From IMG/VR virus record IMGVR_UViG_2563366802_000008: a DNA stretch of 38,529 nt; one strand, written 5' to 3'. This DNA is from a virus. Its lineage: Duplodnaviria; Heunggongvirae; Uroviricota; Caudoviricetes. Below, in pieces: positions 8,493 through 33,804 of the stretch; the first letter of the stretch is position 1; each line of letters begins with the position of its first letter. The position numbers and the translations under genes were made by a program. The notes beneath the pieces are model-generated. The model was not told the origin of the DNA. It saw nothing but the letters and a program-made list of their open reading frames with translations, and did no database searches.

Positions 8493-8723
8493 ATGAAAAA
8501 ATCAGAAGTATTAGGCTATTTTGGCGGAGTTGTTAAAACAGCCGCAGCTCTAGGAACGTCAAAAACCACAGTCAGCATGTGGGGGGAAGAGGTTCCGTGG
8601 AAATGGGCGTTGCTAATTCAGGCAGTCACTGCCGGGGCGCTCAAATATGAGTTACACATACCGACGGTTGTCATTCCCGGTTCTGATCATAATCCGCCTT
8701 CTAACCAAGGGGGGGATTCATGA
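8493..8723 (+). CDS. Cro-like DNA-binding protein
   Basis: ORF 8445-8723; start chosen at ATG 8493 (MKKSEVLGYFGGVVKTAAALGTSKTTVSMW...) preceded by GGAG; HTH-like; stop overlaps the next start (ATGA). Confidence 0.6.
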   Translation: MKKSEVLGYFGGVVKTAAALGTSKTTVSMWGEEVPWKWALLIQAVTAGALKYELHIPTVVIPGSDHNPPSNQGGDS

Positions 8724-9216: not shown

Positions 9217-10287
9217 ATGGCTAACGCCTGGCTCAGATTATGGCATGACATGCCAAATGACCCTAAGTGGCGAACAATTGCCAGGGTGTCAGGGCAGCCA
9301 ATTGCAACAGTGATGGCAGTGTATATCCACCTCCTGGTGAGCGCGTCACGAAATGTCACGCGAGGTCACATTGATGTCACGACAGAAGATTTGGCAAGTG
9401 CGCTCGACGTGACAGAAGAGGTAATTGATTCAATTTTGCAGACGATGCAGGGGCGGGTACTTGATGGTGATTTAATCACTGGATGGGAAAAACGCCAGGT
9501 GCTTAAAGAGGACAACGGCAATATTTCGCAAACCGCAAAATCTCCTGCAGAGCGCAAGAGGGCGCAGCGAGAGAGGGAAAGAAAGCGGGAACAAAATGGC
9601 GATTGTCACGGCGCGTCACGAAATGTCACGCACATGTCACGACGAGTCACGACAGATAAAGATACAGATAAAGATACAGATCAAGAAGATCAAAACACTA
9701 TGGTCCATGGCGTAAAAAACGCCACGAACCAGGCAGGGGATGTTCAGACCGTCAATCTTGGTCAGCCAGCAGGCACGACACCGGAAGCCGATTCAGCGTA
9801 TGCGCTGAAAGCCGATTCGGGCGCTGTGCAGCAGGTGATGACCGCAAGGCCGGAGCAATCACACCAACTGCAGCAGCCTGAAGCCGATTCCGCCATTCAG
9901 CGGGAAGCCGATCGGGTAGTCCCGGAAAACACCGGGCAGTCTGTGGGACGAGTGGATTATCCGGATGTGTTCGAACAGGTCTGGCGGGAGTACCCGTTGC
10001 GTGCCGGGGCAAACCCGAAGAAATCCGCTTTCAGTGCCTGGAAGGCCAGATTACGCGAGGGGGTGCCACCAGAGGCCATGCTGGATGGCGTGAGGCGTTA
10101 CGCAAGATACTTGGCGGCTACCGGGAAAACGGGAACGGAATTTGTTCAGCGAGCGACGACGTTTTTTGGACCGGACCGGAATTTTGAGAACTCCTGGTTG
10201 CTCCCGGTAAGCGGCACGAACAACCAGCGTTGTGTGAATCATATTTCTGAACCGGATAACGAAATTCCGCCGGGCTTCAGGGGGTAA
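9217..10287 (+). CDS. ydaU: YdaU-like replication initiation protein (lambda O-analogous position)
   Basis: ORF 9211-10287; ATG 9217 preceded by AAGAGGTGA; N-terminus MANAWLRLWHDMPNDPKWRTIA typical of the YdaU family; contains internal iteron-like repeats. Confidence 0.7.
   Translation: MANAWLRLWHDMPNDPKWRTIARVSGQPIATVMAVYIHLLVSASRNVTRGHIDVTTEDLASALDVTEEVIDSILQTMQGRVLDGDLITGWEKRQVLKEDNGNISQTAKSPAERKRAQRERERKREQNGDCHGASRNVTHMSRRVTTDKDTDKDTDQEDQNTMVHGVKNATNQAGDVQTVNLGQPAGTTPEADSAYALKADSGAVQQVMTARPEQSHQLQQPEADSAIQREADRVVPENTGQSVGRVDYPDVFEQVWREYPLRAGANPKKSAFSAWKARLREGVPPEAMLDGVRRYARYLAATGKTGTEFVQRATTFFGPDRNFENSWLLPVSGTNNQRCVNHISEPDNEIPPGFRG
9341..9678. repeat. Iteron-like GTCACG arrays plus tandem GATAAAGATACA repeat inside the replication gene (candidate origin)
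   Basis: GTCACG/GTCACA at 9345, 9355, 9365, 9376 and at 9605, 9615, 9625, 9636, 9646 (10-11 bp spacing); exact 20-mer GCGCGTCACGAAATGTCACG at 9341-9360 and 9611-9630; GATAAAGATACA x2 at 9655-9678. Confidence 0.55.
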
Positions 10288-10327
10288 GTGTTAATTTCTG
10301 GTCATGAGGTAATTTTCAGGAGGGCTT

Positions 10328-10750
10328 GTGGCAAAAGTTTTTACACAAGAAGAGCGGGAAAAAATTAAAGGACAGGTTCTTGAACTCGTACGCCAGAGTG
10401 GGCGCGAGACGTTACGACAACTGGAAGCTAAAACTGGGGCAACAAGATATCTGATGAGCGTTCTGGCCAGAGAGCTGGTTGCCAGTGGCGATGTATACAA
10501 TTCTGGCTACGGGTTATTCCCGTCTGAACAGGCTCGTAAAGACTGGCAAAATGCCCGCAAAAAATTATCGAGGGCAAAGCTGAAGAAACCGGTTGTGGTT
10601 GATCCGGACCTTATCTGGTCGTTACCTGACGGAGAAATACGTCGCTACGACAGTCGCCTAAACATAATCTGTCGCGAGTGCCGGAAGAGCGAAGTTATGC
10701 AGCGCATATTGTCGTTTTATCAGGGGGATGTTCGGTATTTATTGAAGTGA
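10328..10750 (+). CDS. Hypothetical protein (140 aa), GTG start
   Basis: ORF with GTG start 10328 preceded by AGGAGGG; no family recognised. Confidence 0.45.
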   Translation: MAKVFTQEEREKIKGQVLELVRQSGRETLRQLEAKTGATRYLMSVLARELVASGDVYNSGYGLFPSEQARKDWQNARKKLSRAKLKKPVVVDPDLIWSLPDGEIRRYDSRLNIICRECRKSEVMQRILSFYQGDVRYLLK

Positions 10751-10978
10751 CGAGATTAAAGTGCATTAGTTCAGATGCAAATTGACATTTTGTGGCACAG
10801 GGTAGAGCTAGCGTGGTTGTCCACTTTGTGCCAAAAGCGGACCTTTACGTATAGGAATATCGCGAATTAGTCGCACATGAAATGTCATTCCCGGAGACAT
10901 TATTTATTCAGACTTGTAAGGGTATGATTCATACAAACAGCGAATGCCTTCGATAATTTTATCTCGCTCGCCAGGAGA

Positions 10979-11425
10979 TCATTTGTAAAAATCAAAAAAT
11001 TCTTGGCAGTAGATACCAGATAACGCCAAATATACCAGGACGGCAACGTCTGGTTTTGGTCCTCTTTTTATCTCATCCAAATCTTTGTTTGTGCAGGAAC
11101 GCATGGTGTCCCTGATATTCGTATCGTTAGTTAACGATTCGCTGACCGCCAGCACTACTGCTCTCTCAGTATGACTGAGAGCATTACTGGCTGAAATAAT
11201 TCGCCCATAGAGTGCGGGATGTGGGGTATTATTACTTTCCGCTATCGCTTGCTGAACACGTTCCTCCTCTACTGGCATAAGGCGACTGATGAGATCGCTG
11301 AGCAAATCTTGCTTTGACTTATGATCGTACATTACCGTTGCCTTACTGACGCCAGCCTCTTTTGCAACGTCATCGATTGAAAGTCCAACTGCACCTTCCC
11401 GAAGAACAACCCTTTCGCGTTTCAT
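10979..11425 (-). CDS. TetR-family transcriptional regulator (short, about 148 aa)
   Basis: ORF 10979-11512; start taken at the internal Met (MKRERVVLREGAV...); N-terminal TetR-type HTH LSIDDVAKEAGVSKATVMYDHKSKQDLL; divergent from the downstream cassette. Confidence 0.65.
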   Translation of the reverse strand: MKRERVVLREGAVGLSIDDVAKEAGVSKATVMYDHKSKQDLLSDLISRLMPVEEERVQQAIAESNNTPHPALYGRIISASNALSHTERAVVLAVSESLTNDTNIRDTMRSCTNKDLDEIKRGPKPDVAVLVYLALSGIYCQEFFDFYK

Positions 11426-11585
11426 CGTTTCACCGGGTGAGGTCGTGCCAGCGCCGTCGCATCCAACATCATGCGGGCAGCAGCAGATCCCATGGATGCG
11501 AATAAAAACCATTATAACCTATTGATTATTATTTTTAAATTTTAATCCAGTGCTAGATTTCTGCTTATCCCTAGGAACTAAATCA

Positions 11586-11606
11586 TGGAGGTCGAGATTG
11601 CCTCCA
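11586..11606. promoter_or_regulatory. Inverted repeat TGGAGG-N9-CCTCCA between the TetR gene and the deaminase gene (candidate operator)
   Basis: Perfect 6-bp arms at 11586-11591 and 11601-11606 in the divergent intergenic region. Confidence 0.3.
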
Positions 11607-11726
11607 GATCCTTTTGAGTAAGTGTGCATTTTGTACATGAGGGTTTAGTCAACAAGGTCTTTATTTTGGATTAATCCTATGGTAAAAAAGAGAAAATTAA
11701 GAGTTTGGATATATAAGGTAATTAAA

Positions 11727-14052
<2,326 letters not shown>

Positions 14053-15153: not shown

Positions 15154-15966
15154 AACCACCTCCTCAAAAACATGCATTATAAATGCGTGTTTTTGAGGGT
15201 TATGTCAAGCTGTTATGAAACACATAATTGATATGTTGATTAGAGGAGAAGATATAATAAATATGGTTGTTTTTCGTATAACTATTTGTTTTACTTTTAG
15301 TTTATGCATTCTGTGTGTTAGGAATAAGTTATTAAAGTTTAATCAAAAAATCTCGATGTAGTCCACATAGATTATTGTTACTGAACCTTATTGTGTGTAT
15401 TAGTTGTGTTCTGAAATTTCAGCTTAATTATTTATGATGTATTTTTTAACGATAAATATTTTCCCAGGATACCTTTACTGTGTATATAAATAAATTATAT
15501 ACACATAAATAATGTAAAGGCGTCCTTTTAGATATATCTTATCAAATGTTAATGACTTGAGTGGGAAATATGATTCCAGCAACTTATCATGTGGCTACTT
15601 TATAAAAATAATGCCCATATAAAAAAACAAGCGAAAAGGATTACGGATAAAAAAGGAGCGAGATGTGCGAACTTGTTATTTTCCATGTTTAACCACCTTA
15701 AATAATTGATGATGACGGGATGATTGCATCTGTAATGCTTTTATTGAAATGTTATGATAAAAAAGAACTTTTGCATAACATTAAAATGTAATTTATCTAA
15801 TCGTTTTTAATAATAAATGTCGTATTTCTATCCTTGTACCAGCTATTTGATATGTAGTGTTTGTTCATGCTATGTGGGGCTTTACACCATAGCCAGTTTA
15901 TTTATACTTTATTCGTCAGCCTGAACAACTGGCATCTGCTGCGCTGCGCCATCGAGAGATTGAGAA

Positions 15967-17507: not shown

Positions 17508-17549
17508 CTGGGGGGGGGCATTTCGTTAAATGAAGCTGTGTTGTGCGCA

Positions 17550-17885: not shown

Positions 17886-18065
17886 GCATTTGAAATAAGT
17901 CTTATTGTATTGCAGCACTGGCGTATTTTTATTACGTGGGAGCAGGTTGTTTCGAAAAAGTATTCTGTTCTCTGGCTATGATTTGAGGCCAGGTGTAGCC
18001 TGATCTTACCCAGCAATAGTGGACACGCGGCTAAGTGAGTAAACTCTCAGTCAGAGGTGACTCAC

Positions 18066-18365
18066 ATGACAAAAACAGTATCAACCAGTAAAAAACCCCG
18101 TAAACAGCATTCGCCTGAATTTCGCAGTGAAGCCCTGAAGCTTGCTGAACGCATCGGTGTTACTGCCGCAGCCCGTGAACTCAGCCTGTATGAATCACAG
18201 CTCTACAACTGGCGCAGTAAACAGCAAAATCAGCAGACGTCTTCTGAACGTGAACTGGAGATGTCTACCGAGATTGCACGTCTCAAACGCCAGCTGGCAG
18301 AACGGGATGAAGAGCTGGCTATCCTCCAAAAGGCCGCGACATACTTCGCGAAGCGCCTGAAATGA
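18066..18365 (+). CDS. insE: IS3 transposase OrfA (InsE)
   Basis: ORF 18057-18365; [31 protein letters not shown]... matches recalled IS3 InsE. Confidence 0.9.
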
Positions 18366-19228
18366 AGTATGTCTTTATTGAAAAACATCAGGCTGAGTTC
18401 AGCATCAAAGCAATGTGCCGCGTGCTCCGGGTGGCCCGCAGCGGCTGGTATACGTGGTGTCAGCGGCGGACAAGGATAAGCACGCGTCAGCAGTTCCGCC
18501 AACACTGCGACAGCGTTGTCCTCGCGGCTTTTACCCGGTCAAAACAGCGTTACGGTGCCCCACGCCTGACGGATGAACTGCGTGCTCAGGGTTACCCCTT
18601 TAACGTAAAAACCGTGGCGGCAAGCCTGCGCCGTCAGGGACTGAGGGCAAAGGCCTCCCGGAAGTTCAGCCCGGTCAGCTACCGCGCACACGGCCTGCCT
18701 GTGTCAGAAAATCTGTTGGAGCAGGATTTTTACGCCAGTGGCCCGAACCAGAAGTGGGCAGGAGACATCACGTACTTACGTACAGATGAAGGCTGGCTGT
18801 ATCTGGCAGTGGTCATTGACCTGTGGTCACGTGCCGTTATTGGCTGGTCAATGTCGCCACGCATGACGGCGCAACTGGCCTGCGATGCCCTGCAGATGGC
18901 GCTGTGGCGGCGTAAGAGGCCCCGGAACGTTATCGTTCACACGGACCGTGGAGGCCAGTACTGTTCAGCAGATTATCAGGCGCAACTGAAGCGGCATAAT
19001 CTGCGTGGAAGTATGAGCGCAAAAGGTTGCTGCTACGATAATGCCTGCGTGGAAAGCTTCTTTCATTCGCTGAAAGTGGAATGTATCCATGGAGAACACT
19101 TTATCAGCCGGGAAATAATGCGGGCAACGGTGTTTAATTATATCGAATGTGATTACAATCGGTGGCGGCGGCACAGTTGGTGTGGCGGCCTCAGTCCGGA
19201 ACAATTTGAAAACAAGAACCTCGCTTAG
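18362..19228 (+). CDS. insF: IS3 transposase OrfB (InsF), DDE integrase-type catalytic domain
   Basis: 288 aa; [32 protein letters not shown]... matches recalled IS3 InsF; overlaps insE as expected for a -1 frameshift fusion. Confidence 0.9.
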
Positions 19229-19258
19229 GCCTGTGTCCATATTACGTGGGTAGGATCA

Positions 19259-19599
19259 GAGAACTGAAGCTGGCGAACGCGGCAATTACTGACATGCAGA
19301 TGCGCCAGCGTGATGTTGCTGCACTGGATGAAAAATACACGAAGGAGTTAGCTAATGCGAAAGCTGAAAATGATGCTCTGCGTGATGATGTTGCCGCTGG
19401 TCGTCGTCGGTTGCACATCAAAGCAGTCTGTCAGTCAGTGCGTGAAGCCACCACCGCCTCCGGCGTGGATAATGCAGCCTCCCCCCGACTGGCAGACACC
19501 GCTGAACGGGATTATTTCACCCTCCGGGAACGACTGGTAATGATGCAGGCCCAACTTGAAGGTGCTCAGCAATACATAACCGAACAGTGTTTAAAGTAA
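19259..19599 (+). pseudogene. rzpR: Rz (i-spanin) 3' fragment, truncated by the IS3 insertion/deletion
   Basis: Reading frame entering from the IS3 right end encodes ...[60 protein letters not shown]..., the C-terminal two-thirds of Rz; no N-terminus or start codon on the other side of IS3. Confidence 0.75.
19355..19540 (+). CDS. rzoR: Rz1 o-spanin lipoprotein (RzoR), nested in the Rz +1 frame
   Basis: 61 aa; [24 protein letters not shown] lipobox and proline-rich [15 protein letters not shown]; embedded within the Rz fragment. Confidence 0.8.
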
Positions 19600-19736
19600 A
19601 ATCTTAACTACAATATGATTCATTTTGATGATTGTTTCATAAGGAACAGTGAAGTAAGATCTAAGAGGAGTTAAATTTTATACAGTATAATCATAATATT
19701 GCAGCAAGGTGGTTATAATTGAAAGAATATTTAGAT

Positions 19737-21194
19737 ATGAATACATCTCATGTAAGAGTTGTTACTCATATGTGTGGGTTCCTGGTTTGGCTCTATAGTC
19801 TTTCAATGTTGCCACCAATGGTTGTAGCATTGTTTTATAAAGAAAAAAGCCTGTTCGTTTTCTTTATAACTTTCGTTATATTTTTTTGCATTGGTGGCGG
19901 AGCGTGGTATACAACTAAGAAATCTGGCATTCAATTACGTACCCGTGATGGGTTTATTATAATTGTAATGTTTTGGATTTTGTTTTCTGTTATTAGTGCA
20001 TTCCCTTTATGGATTGACTCAGAACTTAATTTAACGTTCATTGATGCTCTGTTTGAAGGGGTTTCTGGAATAACAACAACAGGAGCAACTGTAATTGATG
20101 ATGTTAGTTCATTACCTCGGGCATATTTGTACTATCGGTCACAGTTAAATTTTATAGGTGGTTTAGGAGTTATTGTTCTGGCGGTTGCTGTATTGCCATT
20201 ATTGGGTATTGGTGGTGCAAAGCTTTATCAGTCAGAAATGCCGGGGCCATTTAAGGATGACAAACTCACTCCCCGCCTGGCCGATACGTCACGGACACTG
20301 TGGATAACTTATTCTTTATTAGGTATTGCTTGTATTGTCTGTTATAGACTTGCAGGAATGCCTTTGTTTGATGCTATTTGTCACGGGATTTCCACAGTTT
20401 CGCTTGGTGGTTTCTCAACTCATAGCGAGAGTATCGGATATTTTAATAACTATTTGGTTGAGCTGGTGGCTGGTTCTTTTTCCCTGCTATCGGCTTTCAA
20501 CTTCACTCTTTGGTATATTGTTATTAGCAGGAAAACGATAAAACCTTTAATCAGAGATATTGAACTTCGTTTCTTTCTGTTAATAGCCTTAGGGGTGATC
20601 ATTGTTACCTCTTTCCAGGTCTGGCATATAGGTATGTATGACTTGCATGGAAGTTTTATTCATTCGTTTTTTCTTGCCAGCTCCATGCTCACTGATAATG
20701 GTTTAGCTACGCAGGATTATGCAAGTTGGCCCACGCACACGATAGTGTTTTTGCTGTTGTCAAGTTTCTTTGGGGGATGTATAGGTTCAACTTGTGGTGG
20801 AATTAAGTCACTTCGATTTCTTATACTTTTCAAACAAAGCAAACACGAGATAAATCAGCTTTCTCATCCCAGAGCGTTGTTGAGTGTAAATGTAGGAGGG
20901 AAGATAGTTACAGATCGTGTAATGAGGTCTGTATGGAGTTTCTTTTTTCTTTATACTCTCTTCACGGTGTTTTTTATACTGGTGTTAAATGGTATGGGAT
21001 ATGATTTTCTTACATCATTTGCAACAGTGGCTGCATGTATTAATAATATGGGATTAGGTTTTGGGGCTACTGCATCGTCATTCGGAGTGCTTAATGACAT
21101 TGCAAAATGTTTAATGTGCATAGCTATGATTCTTGGTCGCCTTGAAATTTATCCTGTTATTATATTGTTTTCAGGTTTTTTTTGGCGCTCCTAA
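19737..21194 (+). CDS. trkG: Trk-system potassium uptake protein TrkG (prophage moron)
   Basis: ORF 19719-21194; start at ATG 19737 (MNTSHVRVVTHMCGFLVWLYS...) matches recalled K-12 TrkG; multi-pass membrane protein; AT-rich. Confidence 0.85.
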   Translation: MNTSHVRVVTHMCGFLVWLYSLSMLPPMVVALFYKEKSLFVFFITFVIFFCIGGGAWYTTKKSGIQLRTRDGFIIIVMFWILFSVISAFPLWIDSELNLTFIDALFEGVSGITTTGATVIDDVSSLPRAYLYYRSQLNFIGGLGVIVLAVAVLPLLGIGGAKLYQSEMPGPFKDDKLTPRLADTSRTLWITYSLLGIACIVCYRLAGMPLFDAICHGISTVSLGGFSTHSESIGYFNNYLVELVAGSFSLLSAFNFTLWYIVISRKTIKPLIRDIELRFFLLIALGVIIVTSFQVWHIGMYDLHGSFIHSFFLASSMLTDNGLATQDYASWPTHTIVFLLLSSFFGGCIGSTCGGIKSLRFLILFKQSKHEINQLSHPRALLSVNVGGKIVTDRVMRSVWSFFFLYTLFTVFFILVLNGMGYDFLTSFATVAACINNMGLGFGATASSFGVLNDIAKCLMCIAMILGRLEIYPVIILFSGFFWRS

Positions 21195-21331
21195 TATATG
21201 GCTGATTTATAATTGTGAGTTTAATATTATGTTGACTCACTCATTGATCCAATACCTAACTTTACCAGCAACCCCTCCGTCCCCAGTAGCACTGGCTGCT
21301 GGGGTGCGTTTTATTCATAAAGCAAGGCTGT

Positions 21332-22123
21332 ATGAGCGAGAAATTAAAGATAGTCTATCGCCCATTACAAGAATTGTCACCGTATGCGCACAACGCCAGG
21401 ACGCACAGCCCTGAGCAGGTGGCACAACTGGTAGAAAGTATTAAGCAATTCGGCTGGACTAATCCGGTGCTGATTGACGAAAAGGGCGAAATTATTGCGG
21501 GTCACGGTCGTGTTATGGCGGCTGAAATGCTCAAAATGGATTCTGTTCCGGTCATTGTTCTGTCTGGCCTGACGGATGAGCAGAAAAAGGCGTACCGCCT
21601 GGCAGATAATCGCCTGCCGATGAATGCTGGCTGGGATGAAGATCTGTTGCGGATGGAGCTGTCGGACCTAATCAATGCTGATTTTGATGTCTCCCTGACA
21701 GGCTTCATCCCGACAGAAATTGATGAACTGTTGACGGATGTTTTGCCCGGTACAGGAAATGAGGAGGAGCCGTATACGACGAAAATTGATACGCCTGTTT
21801 ATGAGCCGTCGGGCGGTAAACCGGATATCAGTGAACTGTACGACGATACGAAAACTCAGGAGCTGATCAGCCGGATACGTTCGGCGTCCCTTGAGCCTGA
21901 TATTGAGAAATTCCTCCTGTGTGCGGCAGAACGTCACACGGTGTTTAATTTCAGCAGAATTGCGGACTATTACGCTCACGCCCCCTCTGAAATTCAGTGT
22001 TTTTTCGAGGAGTCGGCGCTGGTGATCATTGATTATCAGCAGGCTATTGAAAATGGATTTGTCCGGATGACGCAGCGCATGGTGGAGATCATGCATGGTG
22101 GTGAGGAGGAGGAATATGCGTGA
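21332..22123 (+). CDS. ynaK: ParB-like nuclease domain protein (YnaK-like)
   Basis: 263 aa; N-terminal ParB/Srx-type region with GHGR motif (GEIIAGHGRVMAA). Confidence 0.7.
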   Translation: MSEKLKIVYRPLQELSPYAHNARTHSPEQVAQLVESIKQFGWTNPVLIDEKGEIIAGHGRVMAAEMLKMDSVPVIVLSGLTDEQKKAYRLADNRLPMNAGWDEDLLRMELSDLINADFDVSLTGFIPTEIDELLTDVLPGTGNEEEPYTTKIDTPVYEPSGGKPDISELYDDTKTQELISRIRSASLEPDIEKFLLCAAERHTVFNFSRIADYYAHAPSEIQCFFEESALVIIDYQQAIENGFVRMTQRMVEIMHGGEEEEYA

Positions 22124-23048
22124 TGATTTTTGCGCCTTTATTCTGACTCACGGGCGACCGGACAAAGTTCTGACTTACCGGACGTTGCGTCGTGCTGGCT
22201 ATACCGGGAAAATTTTTATCGTTGTTGATGATGAAGATAAGACACGGAATCAGTACATGGCTGAATTTGGTGAACAGGTGCTGGTGTTTTCCAAAGCCGA
22301 TATCGCCAGTCGTTTTGACGAAGCCGATAATTTCTGTGACCGCCGCTCAATTTTTTACGCCCGTAATGCCTGTTTCGACCTGGCAAAACTGGTCGGGTGT
22401 AAATACTTCATTCAGCTCGATGATGATTATCACGAGTTCCAGTTTCGGGTGGATCGCAACTATGACCAGGCCTATTTTCCGATAAGGAAACTGGATGCGA
22501 TCCTTTCTGAAATGCTGGCGTACTACGAATCAATACCTGCTCTTTCCATCGCTATGTCGCAGGGCGGGGATTTTCTTGGTGACAATGGCGGCCATGCTTC
22601 GTGGGTGAAACGCAAGGCAATGAACAGCTTTATCTGTTCGGTTGATCGACCGTTCTCATTCATGGGGCGCATTAACGAGGATGTGAATACGTACACGAAT
22701 CTCGGTCGCTGTGGTGAATTGTTTATGACGATCGGTGCTGTCCAGTTAGGGCAGAAACAGACGCAGAAAAACAGCGGCGGAATGACCGAGCTGTATCTGG
22801 ATTCCGGAACCTACGTTAAAAGTTTTTACTCCGTCATGTATGCGCCGTCGTGCGTAAAAATCTCACTGATGGGTGCCAGCCATAAACGCATTCACCATCA
22901 GGTCACCTGGAACAACGCTGCAGTAAAAATCCTTCACGAAAAATACAGGAAGAAGACACCCTGCATATCAATGGGGGTGACAAATGATTCCGTATTCGAA
23001 AGTCGAGTCTCTGGCAGCGTGCCGGATGACTGCACAACAAATCGCTGA
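22116..23048 (+). CDS. YdaY-like uncharacterised protein (possible DxD-motif transferase fold; tentative)
   Basis: ORF 22095-23048; start chosen at ATG 22116 preceded by GAGGAGGAGG; contains FIQLDDDY; overlaps the ynaK stop. Confidence 0.5.
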   Translation: MRDDFCAFILTHGRPDKVLTYRTLRRAGYTGKIFIVVDDEDKTRNQYMAEFGEQVLVFSKADIASRFDEADNFCDRRSIFYARNACFDLAKLVGCKYFIQLDDDYHEFQFRVDRNYDQAYFPIRKLDAILSEMLAYYESIPALSIAMSQGGDFLGDNGGHASWVKRKAMNSFICSVDRPFSFMGRINEDVNTYTNLGRCGELFMTIGAVQLGQKQTQKNSGGMTELYLDSGTYVKSFYSVMYAPSCVKISLMGASHKRIHHQVTWNNAAVKILHEKYRKKTPCISMGVTNDSVFESRVSGSVPDDCTTNR

Positions 23049-23238: not shown

Positions 23239-24333
23239 ATGAGCAGACCGGACTGGGGGGCGTTGCAGCAGGAGTATATTGCTGAATACACCCGCTCCGG
23301 TATATCTCCGGTGGCATGGTGTGAAGCAAGGGGACTGAATTACGCAACAGCCCGTCGTTACATCAAAAAAACTCCGAAAAATGCGCAGACAGAAATGTGC
23401 AAAACTGCGCAAAAAAGTGCGCAGAAAAAATCTGCGCAGACTGCACAAAAGCGGAACGAAAAATCTCAGGAAAAAAAGCCAGTATTCGATGCGGGCCTGA
23501 ATGAGGGCGACGCGGAGGAATTTTCGTTCTGTCCCGATGAATTCGGCATTTCTGACCAGCAGGCTAAGTTTGCGATGCTTGTTGCTCAGGGTAAAAAGCC
23601 GACAGAGGCGTACCGACTAGCCGGTTATGAGGGGCAAGGTGCGACAGCTAACAGCAACGCCAGTCGTATGCTTAGAAATGCCAGGGTTTTTCGCGCTATC
23701 AGCTACTTCCGCAATCAGTACCAGAAACGCTATACCGCAGACCTGGATTTACTAGTGAGTCAGTTGATGGCTATTGTCCTGGCCGACCCCAATCAGCTTG
23801 CACAATTTCGCCGTGTTAACTGCCGTTATTGCTGGGGCGAGAATCATCTCTACCAGTGGCGCGATATAGCAGAATTCGACAAGGCAGCGGCGCAGGCTTC
23901 CAGAGATGGCAAACCCGAACCGGAATATGGAGGCCTCGGCTTTGTTGATAACGCCATACCCAATCCGGACTGCCCGAAGTGCTGCGGTGAGGGAACGGGA
24001 CAGCTTTATATGGCTGATACCACTCTGCTTGATGGGGATGCGCGGCAATTATATGCAGGGGCAAAATTCGGAAAATTCGGCGTTGAGATCCTGCTGGAGG
24101 ATAAGGCTGCCGCCCGGCGTGAATTGTTGCGTTTGTTTTCTGCTGGCGGGGCTTTATGTGCAGATAAACGGCTACAGGAACTGGAAATTGAACGGCGCAG
24201 AATGGAAAACCAGAAGCTGCGCAAAGAGATCGAAACGGTGGAAGATAATGAACATCCCCAGCCTGTGGCGATCAATATTAATGTGGTTGATGCCAGAGTA
24301 AGGAGTGATGAAGATGATCTCTCCGACGCTTAA
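23239..24333 (+). CDS. Terminase small subunit
   Basis: 364 aa; position immediately upstream of the large terminase subunit; segment AYRLAGYEGQGATANSNASRMLRN typical of small terminase DNA-binding regions. Confidence 0.7.
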   Translation: MSRPDWGALQQEYIAEYTRSGISPVAWCEARGLNYATARRYIKKTPKNAQTEMCKTAQKSAQKKSAQTAQKRNEKSQEKKPVFDAGLNEGDAEEFSFCPDEFGISDQQAKFAMLVAQGKKPTEAYRLAGYEGQGATANSNASRMLRNARVFRAISYFRNQYQKRYTADLDLLVSQLMAIVLADPNQLAQFRRVNCRYCWGENHLYQWRDIAEFDKAAAQASRDGKPEPEYGGLGFVDNAIPNPDCPKCCGEGTGQLYMADTTLLDGDARQLYAGAKFGKFGVEILLEDKAAARRELLRLFSAGGALCADKRLQELEIERRRMENQKLRKEIETVEDNEHPQPVAININVVDARVRSDEDDLSDA

Positions 24334-25617: not shown

Positions 25618-27024
25618 ATGGCTGATATATCAACACCCAACCTCGACTATAACGATATGCTGGAGGCGTGGGATATTAACGACGCACTGATGGGCGGTAC
25701 GCTTGAAATGCGCAGGCAGGGGGAAAATTATCTCCCAAAATGGCCTAACGAAGATGAAGACGCTTATAAAAAACGCCTGTCTGTGGCTACGCTACTTCCT
25801 GTGTATGAAGAAAGCATCAAGCAAAATATTGGGCGCATATTTGCAGAGCCGACAGTATTGAGTGAGGAAACGCCGGCAAAAATCAGGGAATATGCAGAAA
25901 ATATCGACATGGAGGGGAGCCGACTGGATGTGTGGGCGCAGCAATTTTTCAGCCTCGCATTTCAGTATGGTGTGGCACATGCGCTGGTGGACTATCCACG
26001 AACGGATATGAAAGAGATTCGGACAAAAGCCGATGAAAACGCGACCGGTGGTCGTCCGTACGTTACGATGCTGAATCCACGCCAGGTTATTGGATGGAAA
26101 TCGAAAGTTGAAAAAGGGAAAGTTGTTCTCACTGATTTGCGTATAAAAGAGGTCATCATTATTGATGGTGATGATTTCGGGCAGAAGAAGGTGGAGCAGA
26201 TCCGCCATATTATGCCCCGTCGAGTTGAAATTTATCGACGTAGCGAAGGCACTAATGGCGAATCTGTCTGGACGCTTCATGAGTCATGGAATACCAGCCG
26301 TGATGATATTCCTCTGGTAACACTGTACACGAAGAAAACAGGATTTATGCGTGGTACACCGCCATTGCTTAATCTTGGCTTGTTGAATATCAAGCACTGG
26401 CAAAGCCAGAGCGAGCAGGACAATATTCTTCATGTTACCCGCGTTCCATTGCTGGTGGCCTACGGGCTGGACAGGAATGAAGAACTGACGGTTGGTGCAT
26501 CCACCGCTACGATTTTTGAGGACAGAACAAAAAATGGCCTCGAATATGTTGAACATAGTGGCGCAGCGATAGAATCTGGCGAAACATCACTTGAGAAGCT
26601 GGAAAATCAGATGCGTCATGCCGGCGCTAAACTTCTGCGTGCTGAAAATACATCCACCAAATCTGTTGATCAGACTAATGAAGAGCGAATGCAGGAAAAC
26701 TCGCCGCTTTATACAATGGCGAACTCCCTCGAAGATGCCCTCGATAATATTCTCCAGATAATGGCGGAATGGATCGGAGAGAGTTGCGGTGGCAATGTGG
26801 ATGTGCGCACTGAACTGGATGTATCTGCCCAGGTGTTTGACTCATCCTCCGCGCTGGCTGTTCAGTCATTGCGTCAGGGCGGTGATATACGTCAGATTGA
26901 TGCGGTTCGGGTGTTGCAGGCGTTGAAATTTATCGATCAGGATTCCCGTCCAGAGGAAGTGATCGATGAATTAAAAAATCAGAGTGTAATGCTGATGGAA
27001 ATCAATGATGCAAACCGTGAATGA
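25618..27024 (+). CDS. Portal protein
   Basis: 468-aa ORF immediately after the large terminase; size and position typical of portal proteins. Confidence 0.7.
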   Translation: MADISTPNLDYNDMLEAWDINDALMGGTLEMRRQGENYLPKWPNEDEDAYKKRLSVATLLPVYEESIKQNIGRIFAEPTVLSEETPAKIREYAENIDMEGSRLDVWAQQFFSLAFQYGVAHALVDYPRTDMKEIRTKADENATGGRPYVTMLNPRQVIGWKSKVEKGKVVLTDLRIKEVIIIDGDDFGQKKVEQIRHIMPRRVEIYRRSEGTNGESVWTLHESWNTSRDDIPLVTLYTKKTGFMRGTPPLLNLGLLNIKHWQSQSEQDNILHVTRVPLLVAYGLDRNEELTVGASTATIFEDRTKNGLEYVEHSGAAIESGETSLEKLENQMRHAGAKLLRAENTSTKSVDQTNEERMQENSPLYTMANSLEDALDNILQIMAEWIGESCGGNVDVRTELDVSAQVFDSSSALAVQSLRQGGDIRQIDAVRVLQALKFIDQDSRPEEVIDELKNQSVMLMEINDANRE

Positions 27025-28120
27025 ACGGCTGCGTGATGAATCAATTGCTCATGCAGTCTGGATATCCCGCTATAGCACTGGCGTGGCTGCCAGAATGGTG
27101 AAAATACTGAATGACAGCGATGCGGAACTTACTGCTCGCCTGCTGATAGCACTGGACAGCCTCGATCCAGGTAATTTTACCGTTAAGCGCCTGGAGTCAC
27201 TTCTGGCGAGCGTCAGAAAGGTTAACCGCACTGCTATTAACAGCATGTTTACCAGTCTCTCCGGAGAGCTGAACGAGCTGGCAATTTATGAGGCTGGTTA
27301 TCAGTTAAGTCTGTTTGATTCTATGCTACCTGATTTTGTTGCTGATGTTCACCCTCTGGTTGGTATCTCTCCTGATGCACTTTATGCCGCTGCAATGGCG
27401 CGACCATTCCAGGGACGACTGCTCAGTGAGTGGGCCTCAGATCTTGAGGCGGATCGGCTCAGACGCATAACAAATACAGTGCGTCAGGGTTTTTTGCTGG
27501 GGGATACCAATGAGCAGATCGCAAGAAAAATTCGGGGACATGTCAGTAAGGGATTTCAGGATGGTGCATTGCAGATGAGCCGGGCTAATGCGGCCAGCAT
27601 TGCAAAAACAGCGGTTGGACATCTTGCTGCTACTGCCCGTGAGAGTTTTGCCAGCGCGAATAATGATTTGATTAAGGGTAAGCAATGGTTATCAACGCTT
27701 GATAATCGTACTACGCCACAATGTCGAATCAGGGATCGCCTCAAATATACGCTGAATAATAAACCTGTAGGTCACAGCGTGCCTTATTTGCAGGGGCCGG
27801 GAAAAATTCATTTCTGCTGCCGCTCAACGGAAACGTTCATTCTGAAATCAGCGAAGGAACTGGGTATTGATGTTCGCGATATTTCCCCGGCTGAGCGGGC
27901 CAGCATGGATGGCGTGGTGGCCGGAGATACAACCTACAGGGAATGGTTTTTGCGTCAGCCTTACACCAGACAAAAACAGATTGTGGGGGAAACCCGAGCA
28001 AAGCTGATTCGGGATGGTGGTATGTCGCCAGATGAATTTTACACCGATAAAGGCGAATGGCTGACGCTGAAGCAGCTCCGTGAGCGTGATGCACAGGTAT
28101 TCAGAAAAGCAGGGATTTAA
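27005..28120 (+). CDS. Head morphogenesis / minor capsid protein (Mu F / SPP1 gp7-like)
   Basis: 371-aa ORF following the portal gene; assigned by position and size. Confidence 0.6.
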   Translation: MMQTVNERLRDESIAHAVWISRYSTGVAARMVKILNDSDAELTARLLIALDSLDPGNFTVKRLESLLASVRKVNRTAINSMFTSLSGELNELAIYEAGYQLSLFDSMLPDFVADVHPLVGISPDALYAAAMARPFQGRLLSEWASDLEADRLRRITNTVRQGFLLGDTNEQIARKIRGHVSKGFQDGALQMSRANAASIAKTAVGHLAATARESFASANNDLIKGKQWLSTLDNRTTPQCRIRDRLKYTLNNKPVGHSVPYLQGPGKIHFCCRSTETFILKSAKELGIDVRDISPAERASMDGVVAGDTTYREWFLRQPYTRQKQIVGETRAKLIRDGGMSPDEFYTDKGEWLTLKQLRERDAQVFRKAGI

Positions 28121-28139: not shown

Positions 28140-28167
28140 AGGCTACCTTCGGGTGGCCTTTTTTATT
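28140..28167 (+). terminator. Rho-independent terminator-like hairpin inside the head module
   Basis: Stem AGGCTACC / GGTGGCCT with TTCG loop, followed by TTTTTTATT. Confidence 0.5.
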
Positions 28168-28224
28168 GCTGCGATCCGGATGGTGAGCAGCGTAACTGTC
28201 GGAAGACTTAAACCAGGTACTAAT

Positions 28225-28988
28225 ATGAAACTGAAAACGGTCGAGATTAACGGAAAACAATACGCAGAAATTGATACTGCTGGCCTGCCAGTTTATGTGC
28301 ACGACGATGGTAAAGAAATTGGCTTCGATGCACCGCTGGCGACAAAAAAATTACAGAGCTTAATGGCGAGGCAAAAAATCATCGCCTGGCTAAAGAAGCT
28401 GCAGAGGAAAAACTGGCTAAGTTTGCCGCTATCGAAGACCCGAAGAAGGCGATCGAGGCACTGGAAATGCTGTCAAAAATCGACCAGAAAAAGCTGCTCG
28501 ATGCGGGACAGGTTGACCAGGTTAAGGCAGAAATTACGAAAAATTTTCAGCAGCAATTAGATGAAGAAAAGCAACGCTCTCAGATGCTGGAGAAGCAGCT
28601 TTACGATTCTATGATTGGTGGTAGTTTTGCGGGTTCAAAATATATTGCCGATAAAATTGCGATCCCGGCAGATTTATTACAATCACGCTTCGGGCAGGCA
28701 TTCAAAGTGGAAGAAGGGAGGATCGTTGCTTATGACGCTTCCGGCAACAAAATTTATTCCCGCGCGAAGCCTGGCGAACTGGCGCAGTTTGATGAGGCGC
28801 TGGAGTTCCTTGTCGAAAATTACCCTCAGAAAGACTACATCCTGAAAGCCAGTGGCAACAATGGCGGCGGCTCCCGTCCGACACAGCATGATATTGGTCA
28901 GAAAACGATGAAACGCTCTGCTTTTGATGCACTGGATGTTGCAGGTAAGCAAAACGCATTGAAAGACGGTATCACAATCGTTGATTAA
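28225..28988 (+). CDS. Putative scaffolding-type head protein; needs a -1 shift at an A7 tract to be read through
   Basis: Frame A from ATG 28225 (MKLKTVEINGKQYAEIDTAGLPVYVHDDGKEIGFDAPLATKK) turns to basic junk after 28350; frame B is open from 28314 (...ITELNGEAKNHRLAKEAAEEKLAKF...) to 28988; frames overlap at AAAAAAA 28344-28350. Confidence 0.45.
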
Positions 28989-29086: not shown

Positions 29087-30226
29087 ATGGCTGGAAATAC
29101 CCTGACCGGGTTGATCCCGACTATTTATACCGCCCTGGATGTTGTATCCCGTGAGCAGGTAGGTTTTATCCCTGCGGTAGCAAAAAACGCAAAAGCTGAC
29201 GCCGCAGCAAAAGATCAGACGGTAACCGCGCCAGTTGCGCCTGAGGCGAAAACCGAAGATATCGTACCGGGGCCGTCAGCTCCGAATACCGGTGATCAAA
29301 ATATTGGCACTGTTGATGTGAAAATTACTAAATCCAAAATGGCACCGGTTAAATGGAATGGTGAAGAACAACTGGCTCTTGGCCCTTCAGGGACTTACAA
29401 CACCATTCTGGCTGATCAGTTTAAGCAGGCTTTTCGCGCCCTTGCAAACGAGGTTGAGGCTGATCTTGGTGCGTTGTATTTCGGTGCTTCCCGCGCCGTG
29501 GGAACCGCAGGGACAACGCCGTTTGGTGTTAAAGATGATCTTTCTGATGCTGCTCTGGCTCGTCAGGTTCTGGAGGATAACGGCGCACCGACAACCGATC
29601 TGCAGATGGTGCTTGGCTCCAGTGCCATTGCTAATTTGCGCGGAAAACAGTCTGTACTGTTTAAAGTGAATGAATCCGGCACTGAACAGCTACTGCGTGA
29701 GGGCGTGTTGGGGCGTCTGGAGGGATTCAATATTCACAGTTCGGCAGGTGTAAAACGAGCGCCAAAGGTTGCTGCAACTGGTTATCTCGTGAATGGCGAG
29801 AAAAAAGAAGGCGATGTTCTTATTTCCATTGATACTGGTTCGGGGAGTATTTCTGCAGGTCAGATTGTTACGTTCGCTGGCGATCCGAATCAGTATGTTG
29901 TGGCAGCAGCGACCAGCAATCTGATTACTCTTGCAGCGCCCGGACTGCGTCAGGATCTGGCCGATGATACTGCAATCACAGTTGTTGGCTCCTTTACTGC
30001 AAATATGGCGTTTGATCGCAACGCGTTTCTGCTGGCATCCCGTACTCCGGCAATGCCGGAAGGTGGCGATAATGCTGATGATGTAATGAATGTTACGGAC
30101 CCGATTTCAGGGATTACGTTCCAGATTGCACTGTATCGTCAGTATCGCCAGGTGCGCTATGAAGTTGGACTGGCATGGGGTGTTTCATCAGTGAAGCCGG
30201 CACATGGTTGTCTGATTCTTGGTTAA
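29087..30226 (+). CDS. Major capsid protein
   Basis: ORF 28994-30226; start at ATG 29087 preceded by AAGGAA; position after the scaffold-like gene; 379 aa. Confidence 0.7.
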   Translation: MAGNTLTGLIPTIYTALDVVSREQVGFIPAVAKNAKADAAAKDQTVTAPVAPEAKTEDIVPGPSAPNTGDQNIGTVDVKITKSKMAPVKWNGEEQLALGPSGTYNTILADQFKQAFRALANEVEADLGALYFGASRAVGTAGTTPFGVKDDLSDAALARQVLEDNGAPTTDLQMVLGSSAIANLRGKQSVLFKVNESGTEQLLREGVLGRLEGFNIHSSAGVKRAPKVAATGYLVNGEKKEGDVLISIDTGSGSISAGQIVTFAGDPNQYVVAAATSNLITLAAPGLRQDLADDTAITVVGSFTANMAFDRNAFLLASRTPAMPEGGDNADDVMNVTDPISGITFQIALYRQYRQVRYEVGLAWGVSSVKPAHGCLILG

Positions 30227-32023: not shown

Positions 32024-32986
32024 GTGAGTTCAGGTGCAAAGGTTATCTCGGCATTTATCCGGGAGACGGTTGCAGGCACTACGCCAGCAAGTGGTGACTG
32101 GAGTTTATTAAAACGCACAAGCTGGGGAGTAAAACCCACCCAGAATAAAGGCGAAAATAATGAGATTGGTGGCTCCCGGATGGCTCAGGGGGCGACGCCT
32201 GGCACTGTGGATGTCGGCGGTGATGTTGGTACCAAATTTCGCTGGGGTCAACATGATGATTTTCTTGCATCCTGTTTCGGCGCGGAATGGTCAGGCGATT
32301 CTCTGACAATGGGGAATGAGCGAATAACATTTTCTCTGGCGACCTATGCGTCCGATGTCGGAATTGCCTCTGTCGTCAGAGGAGCGCAGGTTGGCTCATG
32401 GAAAATGCAGATCCCTAACGACGGCGATATTACAGCGACCGTAACCTTTGCCGGACTGGACTGGGAATCAAAGGCCGATGATACGAATTTTATCAAAGGC
32501 GAACCTGTGGATAGTGCAGGAAAGCTACGTTATTCGTTTAAGGAGGTTTCAGCAGTAAGCCTGAATGGTGTTGCCGGAGGTAACGGTTTTTGTATCGACA
32601 GTTTTGATATTCAGTTCGATAACAAACTCCAGACACAGCGTTGTATCGGGACTGGCTCGCCTTATGCAGGAGCAAATATTCCGACTACTTTTACACCGTC
32701 CGGTACGGTGACGCTTTCATGGTCTAAAGCCGCGTGGGAAATCTGGAGTAAAACACTGACTGGAGAAACAGTTCCGTTCAGCTTCACGCTTTCGAATGGA
32801 GAGGGGGCATACACTTTCAGTTTCCCGAAGGTTCAGGTGTCAGGTGAATGGCCTGATGGGGGTAATAGCGACATTATCCAGGTTCAATTGAGCATTACCG
32901 CAGCAGATGAAGCACCTACGATAACCAGAAAAAAAAATTCCCCGGCTGCCGTGATCGCAAAAGCCAGTGCTGAGGCGATTAGTTGA
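32024..32986 (+). CDS. Major tail (tube) protein
   Basis: 320-aa ORF with GTG start after AGGAGG; directly upstream of the chaperone/tape-measure genes. Confidence 0.65.
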   Translation: MSSGAKVISAFIRETVAGTTPASGDWSLLKRTSWGVKPTQNKGENNEIGGSRMAQGATPGTVDVGGDVGTKFRWGQHDDFLASCFGAEWSGDSLTMGNERITFSLATYASDVGIASVVRGAQVGSWKMQIPNDGDITATVTFAGLDWESKADDTNFIKGEPVDSAGKLRYSFKEVSAVSLNGVAGGNGFCIDSFDIQFDNKLQTQRCIGTGSPYAGANIPTTFTPSGTVTLSWSKAAWEIWSKTLTGETVPFSFTLSNGEGAYTFSFPKVQVSGEWPDGGNSDIIQVQLSITAADEAPTITRKKNSPAAVIAKASAEAIS

Positions 32987-33034: not shown

Positions 33035-33496
33035 ATGAGGTTATGGATGTTTATTCTTAATCAGAAAATTATCATTGGTGGAGAACGCTGGTTTACGCCA
33101 ATGAAGGACTTAAAACCTGTAGACGGGTTAAAACTGTTGGTGGCAAGCAGCGATAACGATCAGTATCGCTCCCGTAATGCATTAATCCGTCGCCACATTG
33201 AGAAAATGGATGCCAGTTTGCACGTCGGAACGAAGGAGTTTGATATTTCAAAGGTTTCCGAGGTGAATTCTGTTGATGATTTACTCATTGATAATGCCGC
33301 TCGTTATCTGCTGAAAGACTGGAAAGGGGTTGGTGAACTGGTTAATGGTGTTGAGGTTGCACTGGAATATACGGCAGAACGAGGGATCGCGCTGCTTAAG
33401 CAGAATCCAGAGTTGTACTGGCAGATCCTTGCAGAAGCAGCCAGCATCGCCCAGGGTAAAGAGCAGCAGAAGCAGGATACGATAAAAAAGCCATAG
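33035..33496 (+). CDS. Tail assembly chaperone (gpG-like)
   Basis: 153-aa ORF upstream of the tape-measure gene, ending just after the slippery heptamer A AAA AAG. Confidence 0.7.
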   Translation: MRLWMFILNQKIIIGGERWFTPMKDLKPVDGLKLLVASSDNDQYRSRNALIRRHIEKMDASLHVGTKEFDISKVSEVNSVDDLLIDNAARYLLKDWKGVGELVNGVEVALEYTAERGIALLKQNPELYWQILAEAASIAQGKEQQKQDTIKKP

Positions 33497-33804
33497 CTGC
33501 CCAGCGGTGGTTATCGGAGTTCGGGGGAGAAAGGGGGGAAAAGGCAAGATGGAAGCGAGAAAAACTCAGGTTGCCACCGATACCGGAACCAGAAATAGAC
33601 CCGGTGCTTAAGGAGTTGTTGTACGCCTATTCGGTAATATCCCGTGCCCGACGTTATGCTGGAATGGCTGGGGTGCCTTTGCCTTTATCTCTGACAGAGA
33701 TAAATGAATATTTAGCCACTCATCCGGTATTGATTGAGCGCGATGAATTTGAAGCAGTGATCTTTGCACTGGATGACCAGTATTTTCAGGAGCAGTGTGT
33801 GTAG
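33035..33804 (+). CDS. Tail assembly chaperone frameshift product (gpGT-like, -1 shift at 33484-33490)
   Basis: -1 frame is open from the slippery site through ...RWKREKLRLPPIPEPEIDPVLKELLYAYSV... to a stop at 33804; canonical G/GT arrangement. Confidence 0.6.

Follow-up and report, generated by a model that had tools for sequence, protein, structure and literature searches.

Introduction

Phage head scaffolding proteins (PHROG 206) have a functional model in gp8 of phage P22, whose procapsids hold 60-300 scaffold copies per 415 coat subunits, and the P22 protein tolerates large N-terminal truncations, with fragments 141-303 and 238-303 still able to assemble capsids (PMC9962691). Two further bodies of work bear on such a gene when its reading frame is interrupted at a run of adenines. 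In translation, A_AAA_AAA belongs to the heptamers at which frameshifting exceeds 0.10% even without stimulators, and it serves in IS elements, unstimulated heptamers reaching at most about ten times a background of 0.055% (Sharma et al., PMC4066793). In transcription, slippage on A runs which restores the reading frame has been documented, and the slippage-prone A/T runs of many bacteria are about nine long (Baranov et al. 2005, PMC1088944).

Here we consider a scaffold-like gene which is divided between two frames at a run of seven adenines (A7). It is found in the IMG/VR virus record IMGVR_UViG_2563366802_000008, and by the window we mean the whole stretch of DNA that was analysed, 38,529 nucleotides in length. 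Our preferred reading, to which we give a probability of about 0.88, is that of a real, inherited contraction from A8 to A7 in the DUF6651 scaffold-like gene of a Rac-type prophage, making it a frameshifted pseudogene.

Architecture of the divided gene

The initial annotation had described a head gene split over two frames at an A7 run, and both the frame translations and the match to an uninterrupted relative confirm that description. From the ATG at 28225-28227 the starting frame reads MKLKTVEINGKQYAEIDTAGLPVYVHDDGKEIGFDAPLATKK, after which come 69 junk codons rich in lysine and arginine and a stop at 28558-28560; standard decoding of the A7 allele yields a 111-aa product made up of 42 native and 69 junk residues. 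The run stands in the context GCG ACA AAA AAA TTA. The −1 frame is closed before about 28314 and open from there to the stop at 28986-28988, its translation past that point (...KKITELNGEAKNHRLAKEAAEEK...) being free of stops until 28988, and the third frame is full of stops across the locus. From the A run onward the −1 frame reads ITELNGEAKNHRLAKEAAEEK...GITIVD, so that the sensible continuation reported earlier stands, its exact length being 212 codons rather than 210 aa. This segment matches the Pfam family DUF6651 (PF20356) with E = 5e-61 and 203.5 bits, against a cut-off of 27, and the junk-tailed 111-aa product gives no Pfam match. Strain ET210, where the run is A8, encodes an uninterrupted protein of 254 aa that is identical throughout to the 42 and 212 residues joined together. 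Since the −1 segment carries a recognisable domain and the joined residues equal an existing protein, the pattern of two frames is not a product of chance. Runs of seven or more adenines are themselves not rare in the window, where nine are observed and 2.9 expected.

It had also been stated that the second frame has no start codon of its own. This holds for the stretch 28314-28466, in which the list of open reading frames shows no ATG, GTG or TTG, and fails beyond it, as there is an internal ATG at 28467 with a GAGG motif ahead of it, opening an ORF that is called on hundreds of public contigs. The features of the locus and of its surroundings are collected in Table 1.

Table 1. Positions in the window of the divided gene, its parts and the neighbouring features
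Feature	Position	Strand	Remarks
Frameshifted DUF6651 (scaffold-like) pseudogene, entire	28225..28988	+	Limits equal those of PGAP's M5T33_RS11550 in E. coli strain 3359
5' segment, codons 1-42, starting frame (MKLK...LATKK)	28225..28350	+	Identical to the N-terminus of intact 254-aa homologues
A7 run, site of one-base loss	28344..28350	+	Intact alleles have A8
Out-of-frame tail of 5' ORF (LQSLMARQKIIAWLKK..., 69 junk codons and stop)	28351..28560	+	No Pfam match
3' segment, −1 frame, codons 43-254 of the intact protein (ITELNG...TIVD and stop)	28350..28988	+	Whole DUF6651 domain
Internal-ATG ORF, 173 aa, from Met82 of the intact protein	28467..28988	+	GAGG at 28455-28458, 8 nt upstream
DUF4055 portal gene	25618-27024		Upstream of the scaffold-like gene, as is the terminase
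Mu-F-like minor head protein gene	27008..28120	+	Upstream neighbour
P22-type major capsid protein gene	29087..30226	+	PF11651, phrog_283; downstream neighbour
IS3 element	about 18001-19258		Replaces holin and endolysin genes
Truncated Rz	19246-19599		After IS3

Identity and neighbourhood of the gene

When repaired, the 254-aa protein matches phrog_784, to which no function is assigned (E = 7e-126), and also phrog_206, annotated as "head scaffolding protein" (E = 1.9e-22). The window has the gene order portal, minor head (MuF), scaffold-like and major capsid, and the place of the gene between the MuF-like and P22-type coat genes, together with the PHROG scaffolding match, supports the earlier description of a scaffold-like head gene. 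On position and profile the label is a fair one, and scaffolding is the putative activity. A PDB profile search with six homologues as query found no solved-structure relative below E = 0.2, the protein has no match in NCBIfam, and a full-text literature search found no paper mentioning DUF6651. A single-sequence AlphaFold2 model of the 212-aa continuation is mostly helical, with low confidence (pLDDT 54, pTM 0.32).

Two features of the neighbourhood are recorded here in their own right. Between the MuF-like and scaffold-like genes, at 28141-28170, lies a GC-rich hairpin, AGGCTACC-TTCG-GGTGGCCT, followed by TTTTTTATT, and the corresponding stretch of phage HK639 (1197-1218 of the HK639 extract) is annotated as a terminator. 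Directly upstream of the terminase genes there is a gene with a PF20691 domain (TAGT / 'GREB1-related'; 22095-23048).

Length of the run in relatives

The alignment that had been proposed as a check, of homologous genes to see whether they are contiguous with A8, gives a clear answer, in that A8 and a contiguous gene are near-universal in close relatives. Over 961 bp the sole difference between ET210 and the window is one extra A, giving A8, and the ET210 gene encodes one contiguous 254-aa protein (WP_113383106.1). The scaffold-like DUF6651 gene is present in about 14% of complete E. coli genomes. These carriers number 747, of which 646 could be typed by exact 86/87-mers around the run in three sequence backgrounds, the other 101 carrying further variants. 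A8 was found in 639 of the 646 and A7 in seven, or about 1%, distributed as 370 A8 and three A7 on the background GCGAC...AATGG, 53 A8 and no A7 on GCGAC...AATAG, and 216 A8 and four A7 on GCGAT...AATGG. Sixty genomes sampled across the 747 carriers gave 58 genes ungapped at the A8 length and one with a one-base deletion (A7); in the remaining genome, NCTC11129, the gene is cut by an IS element after the run, which is A8. All flank-matching contigs in IMG/VR (43/43) and in metagenomes (29/29) likewise have A8, and the commonest intact 254-aa variants each occur on at least about 1000 contigs. The run with its flanks had no match, as A7 or as A8, in GTDB species-representative genomes, a result which has no bearing on run length.

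Further afield, none of five distant phage homologues (protein identity 54-78%) has an A run at the site, and each is encoded in one uninterrupted frame of 250-254 aa, the corresponding sequences being GGAAAAATC in Klebsiella phage 5 LV-2017, GGGAAAATC in ST405-OXA48phi1.3, AGCACCATT in Flyfo siphovirus Tbat2_3, GCGACCATC in Erwinia phage Gungnir39 and ACCAAAATC in HK639. Of the possibilities first offered, that of a one-base deletion from A8 to A7 giving a pseudogene is the one borne out, because the intact allele has A8 and a single 254-aa ORF.

Origin and consequences of the lost base

Under the preferred reading, strand slippage in DNA replication at the run would be the likely cause of the lost A. 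The loss shifts the frame after codon 42 and leaves the 212 C-terminal codons, with their DUF6651 domain, stranded in the −1 frame, which is where the translations place them. We infer loss of scaffold function from the A7 allele because DUF6651 is then out of frame with the start codon, and the earlier remark that the prophage possibly lacks a functional scaffold is a reasonable one. Some frame restoration, by −1 slippage of ribosomes or by insertion of an A by RNA polymerase, would probably occur, at a frequency between well under 1% and a few per cent, an estimate derived from published reporter data. By analogy with the scaffold stoichiometry of P22, restoration at that frequency would lie far below the need for a stoichiometric scaffold, and a leak of less than one per cent would not be enough. 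The host prophage is presumed to be under no selection for virion making, and comparison with relatives shows that its holin and endolysin genes were lost separately to an IS3 element.

Decay of the surrounding prophage

The window contains a Rac-type lambdoid prophage which starts at intR/xisR/recET and in strain 3359 adjoins ttcA. Over 19 kb it differs from ET210 by one SNP and two indels, and lacks about 1.4 kb (9719-11128 of the ET210 extract) in which ET210 has essD for holin and rrrD for endolysin, together with a small ORF and the beginning of Rz. Compared with strain 3359 the window has 2.8 kb extra (19263-22084), with seven SNPs and one indel besides; in strain 3359 the deletion beside IS3 is larger and also takes out window positions 19263-22084, with Rz/Rz1, trkG and ynaK. 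Judged by its gene content the prophage is defective, IS3 standing in place of the holin and endolysin genes.

Related prophages that all carry A7 can be arranged as a series of decay. One contig (L087) retains holin, lysozyme and Rz; the window, GCA_000408605.1 (L085) and contig L090 have the IS3 replacement; and strain 3359 and contigs L086 and L092 have the larger deletion beside IS3. Since A7 is present at every stage, it appears to be an early lesion, with erosion of the prophage coming later.

Several other features of the prophage deserve mention. A gene for a Cro/YdaS-like helix-turn-helix protein upstream of ydaT (8493-8723) encodes 76 aa, with its stop codon shortly beyond a G7 run at 8709-8715; in strain 3359, which does not differ from the window in this region, PGAP flags the gene as "frameshifted", and it may be a second homopolymer frameshift in the prophage. 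Other long homopolymers are an A9 run at 32929-32937, close to where the tail tube gene (32024-32986) ends, a G9 run at 17510-17518 and a G8 run at 11809-11816. Run lengths in the window and ET210 are, respectively, A7 and A6 at 15621, G9 and G8 at 17510, and A7 and A6 at 23365, and the small terminase subunit of ET210, with its A6 at 23365, is flagged as frameshifted. A block of cargo genes (about 10979-14052) encodes a TetR regulator followed by an amidohydrolase/adenosine-deaminase-like protein, as well as a non-canonical purine NTP pyrophosphatase and a SIR2-family protein, and may be an anti-phage or nucleotide-depletion module.

Possible residual function of the stranded segment

The alternative which survives best, and which we nonetheless regard as unlikely, is that the 173-aa ORF beginning at ATG 28467 is translated, keeps the whole of DUF6651 and still supports capsid assembly. 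The ORF has a plausible Shine-Dalgarno sequence at a spacing of 8 nt and retains the full domain at the E-value given above, and the tolerance of P22 scaffolding protein to truncation is the reason why we keep some activity of such a product at low probability. The analogy between DUF6651 proteins and P22 gp8 is, however, a loose one. Moreover, the residues that would be lost, 43-81, are well conserved in distant homologues, in which N47, E49-A50-K51, H53-R54, K57 and A59-A60-E61 are invariant, and ribosomes translating the overlapping 111-aa ORF would cross ATG 28467.

Related to this, and in our judgement quite improbable, is that the A8/A7 run regulates capsid assembly like a valve that leaks or can be switched: in A7 carriers a little full-length scaffold would be made through −1 slippage on A_AAA_AAA or through stuttering of RNA polymerase, or else the N-terminally truncated 173-aa protein would serve as scaffold and keep the head genes partly functional. 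Such a valve, if it existed, would explain both the persistence and the recurrence of A7.

Reality of the A7 allele

Homopolymer length is the commonest assembly error, and the initial annotation had allowed for a sequencing error at the run. It is very unlikely that the gene is in fact intact, with A8, in this strain. ET210, the nearest A8 relative, does differ from the window mostly by homopolymer lengths, and some public assemblies that show A7 or A6 contain evident errors: in contig L089, which has 29 gap openings relative to the window, the short run is probably an error of long-read-only assembly, and in contig L108, with three contracted runs within 32 bp, it is probably a long-read error. 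Against this stands the recurrence of A7 on one and the same haplotype in seven or more assemblies made in different years by different projects, among them a RefSeq complete genome, which argues against an error peculiar to the window; this evidence consists of consensus assemblies rather than raw reads. From 18467 to 38529, its right half, the window matches scaffold KE137186.1 of GCA_000408605.1 at 100% identity, and A7 is found on the haplotype of the window in GCA_000159895.2, GCA_964044885.1, GCA_022977015.1, GCA_028436165.1 and GCA_033441415.1, each with 0-3 mismatches over 16-20 kb, as well as in strain 3359 from RefSeq and in an ENA metagenome scaffold with 15 mismatches from the window.

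Across the 961 bp surrounding the run, the window and E. coli strain 3359 (NZ_CP103739.1) are 100% identical, and strains 2779 and 3059, from the same accession series, have A8, so that the pipeline which produced strain 3359 was not systematically dropping an A. PGAP annotates the strain 3359 locus as one CDS, "DUF6651 domain-containing protein", marked as a pseudogene and "frameshifted" (M5T33_RS11550). The pseudogene status of the identical sequence is already flagged in RefSeq.

Gene callers report the 173-aa remnant ORF, in exactly the form that the window has, on 173 public contigs drawn from NCBI, ENA and the Logan assemblies of public sequencing runs. They are mostly 10-20 kb long, as is typical of short-read assemblies, and all ten sampled from the 173 have A7. 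Exact look-ups of the 111-aa and 135-aa products of frame 1 returned no called gene; what callers choose is the internal ORF of 173 aa. With the same haplotype appearing in assemblies from other projects and in rebuilt public runs, the possibility of a sequencing error that was raised at the outset is unlikely.

Recurrence and spread of the contraction

A7 has been seen on three backgrounds, GCGAC...AATGG, GCGAC...AATAG and GCGAT...AATGG, defined by SNPs at distances of 1 nt and 23 nt on the upstream side and 15 nt on the downstream side of the run, and with the SNPs so near the run recombination is not the simpler explanation of this distribution. It also occurs at two chromosomal sites, the Rac site and a degraded remnant lying between ybhC and bioA, where the attachment site of lambda is, the latter being common to two Asian strains, which share even the same truncated tape-measure gene. 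With three or more backgrounds and two chromosomal locations represented among the A7 alleles, the A8 run of the DUF6651 gene is a recurrent slippage hotspot, and about 1% of carriers have A7. Other variants of the 173-aa remnant occur on 310 and 153 contigs, with A7 in seven of eight and four of ten sampled, respectively; the others sampled had lost 5' sequence or had A6, a different frameshift or what is probably a nonsense change.

The protein variant of the window, with Ser154, is known in its A7 form from 173 contigs and in its intact A8 form from 39. As the broken form is the commoner, it must have persisted and spread with a clone, a spread that neutral hitch-hiking would explain.

Runs of eight mutate far more slowly in mismatch-repair-proficient E. 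coli than known contingency loci do. This general observation bears on the suggestion, which we hold to be highly improbable, that A8/A7 is a reversible contingency switch for virion production by the prophage. Repeated contractions on at least three backgrounds, and the existence of on and off alleles in the near-identical prophages of ET210 and the window, would suit phase variation. A7 makes up only about 1% of alleles, however, and is stably inherited along the decay series with no flickering, and other homopolymers of the same prophage vary in a like manner, so that the run in the scaffold-like gene is not special.

As a separate observation, public databases list 173-aa remnants of frameshifted or 5'-deleted alleles as ordinary entries, EFH6366164.1 and CAM7191334.1 among them, under the name "hypothetical protein" or "DUF6651 domain-containing protein". 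Clustered at 90% identity, the intact 254-aa proteins fall together with MuF-like minor head proteins of 370 aa, for which a fused gene call may be the reason.

The case for recoding

The initial annotation had also proposed slippage of ribosomes or RNA polymerase on the run. Read in the frame of ATG 28225, the A7 run forms an A_AAA_AAA heptamer which is phased for −1 tandem slippage (its non-slippery counterpart is GCGACGAAGAAG), and a predicted hairpin starts 6 nt after it; together these make some restoration of frame physically plausible. The hairpin is not significant (z = −1.7, with 13 of 200 shuffles folding at least as well), and its sequence is equally present in A8 alleles, which need no shift. 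At seven, the run falls below the length of about nine that efficient transcriptional slippage needs in many bacteria.

That the gene is programmed for recoding, by −1 frameshifting on the heptamer or by addition of an A by RNA polymerase, to give full-length scaffold is hardly credible, for all that the heptamer is in phase and has a predicted hairpin downstream of it, that the motif shifts unaided and serves IS elements (PMC4066793) and that transcriptional slippage on A runs can restore frame (PMC1088944), since about 99% of carriers are contiguous with A8, distant homologues have no run, the conservation that defines such sites is absent, unstimulated heptamers reach no more than some ten times a background of 0.055% (PMC4066793) and the run is shorter than slippage-prone ones (PMC1088944). 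With neither the split layout nor the A run conserved, a conserved programmed frameshift is not supported. A programmed frameshift in the intact A8 gene, which would have produced a 47-aa N-terminal peptide, was considered as well and dropped, because the run is absent from distant homologues.

Elsewhere in the window, an A_AAA_AAG heptamer is found at 33484-33490, two codons before the stop of a YdaY-family ORF (...ATA AAA AAG CCA TAG). This ORF (33035/33137-33496) sits between the tail tube and tape-measure genes, and the −1 frame from the heptamer is open to 33804 and enters the ORF 33571-33804 (...LRLPPIPEPEID...). It looks like a conserved programmed −1 frameshift of a tail assembly chaperone, of the lambda G/GT type.

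Implications for annotation

For annotation purposes the preferred reading, an inherited A8 to A7 contraction, means that 28225-28988 should be treated as one frameshifted pseudogene, and neither as two genes nor as a recoding site, and that the prophage should be scored as defective; the wider import is small. A7 alleles lead gene callers to emit a spurious 173-aa "DUF6651 protein", which is now in public protein databases. The window also offers a contrast between a non-conserved homopolymer frameshift, in the scaffold-like gene, and an apparently programmed one at 33484-33490.

Comparison with known systems

In its setting the gene resembles those for phage head scaffolding proteins, as it adjoins a P22-type coat gene and follows the portal and MuF-like genes; it differs in that DUF6651 is a Pfam family with no assigned function, scaffolding being the role suggested by its context here. 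With the programmed −1 sites of dnaX, IS3/IS911 and lambda G/GT it shares an in-phase X_XXY_YYZ heptamer joining two overlapping frames, from which it departs in that layout and run are not conserved, and no stimulatory element was found that reached significance. The rescue of frame by transcriptional slippage offers another likeness, namely a frameshifting indel within an A run that can be partly corrected in mRNA, although the bacterial runs on record are about nine long and sometimes eight (PMC1088944), and with a run of only seven such rescue should be slight. The closest counterparts are the frameshift pseudogenes that arise by homopolymer slippage in decaying prophages. As in those, there is a one-base change of run length relative to intact orthologues, present as a minority allele in a prophage which has other lesions (IS3 and a deletion), and RefSeq applies the label "frameshifted". 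We see no material difference from such pseudogenes, the mildly notable aspects being the repeated, independent contraction of the run and the clonal spread of the contracted allele to 173 contigs.
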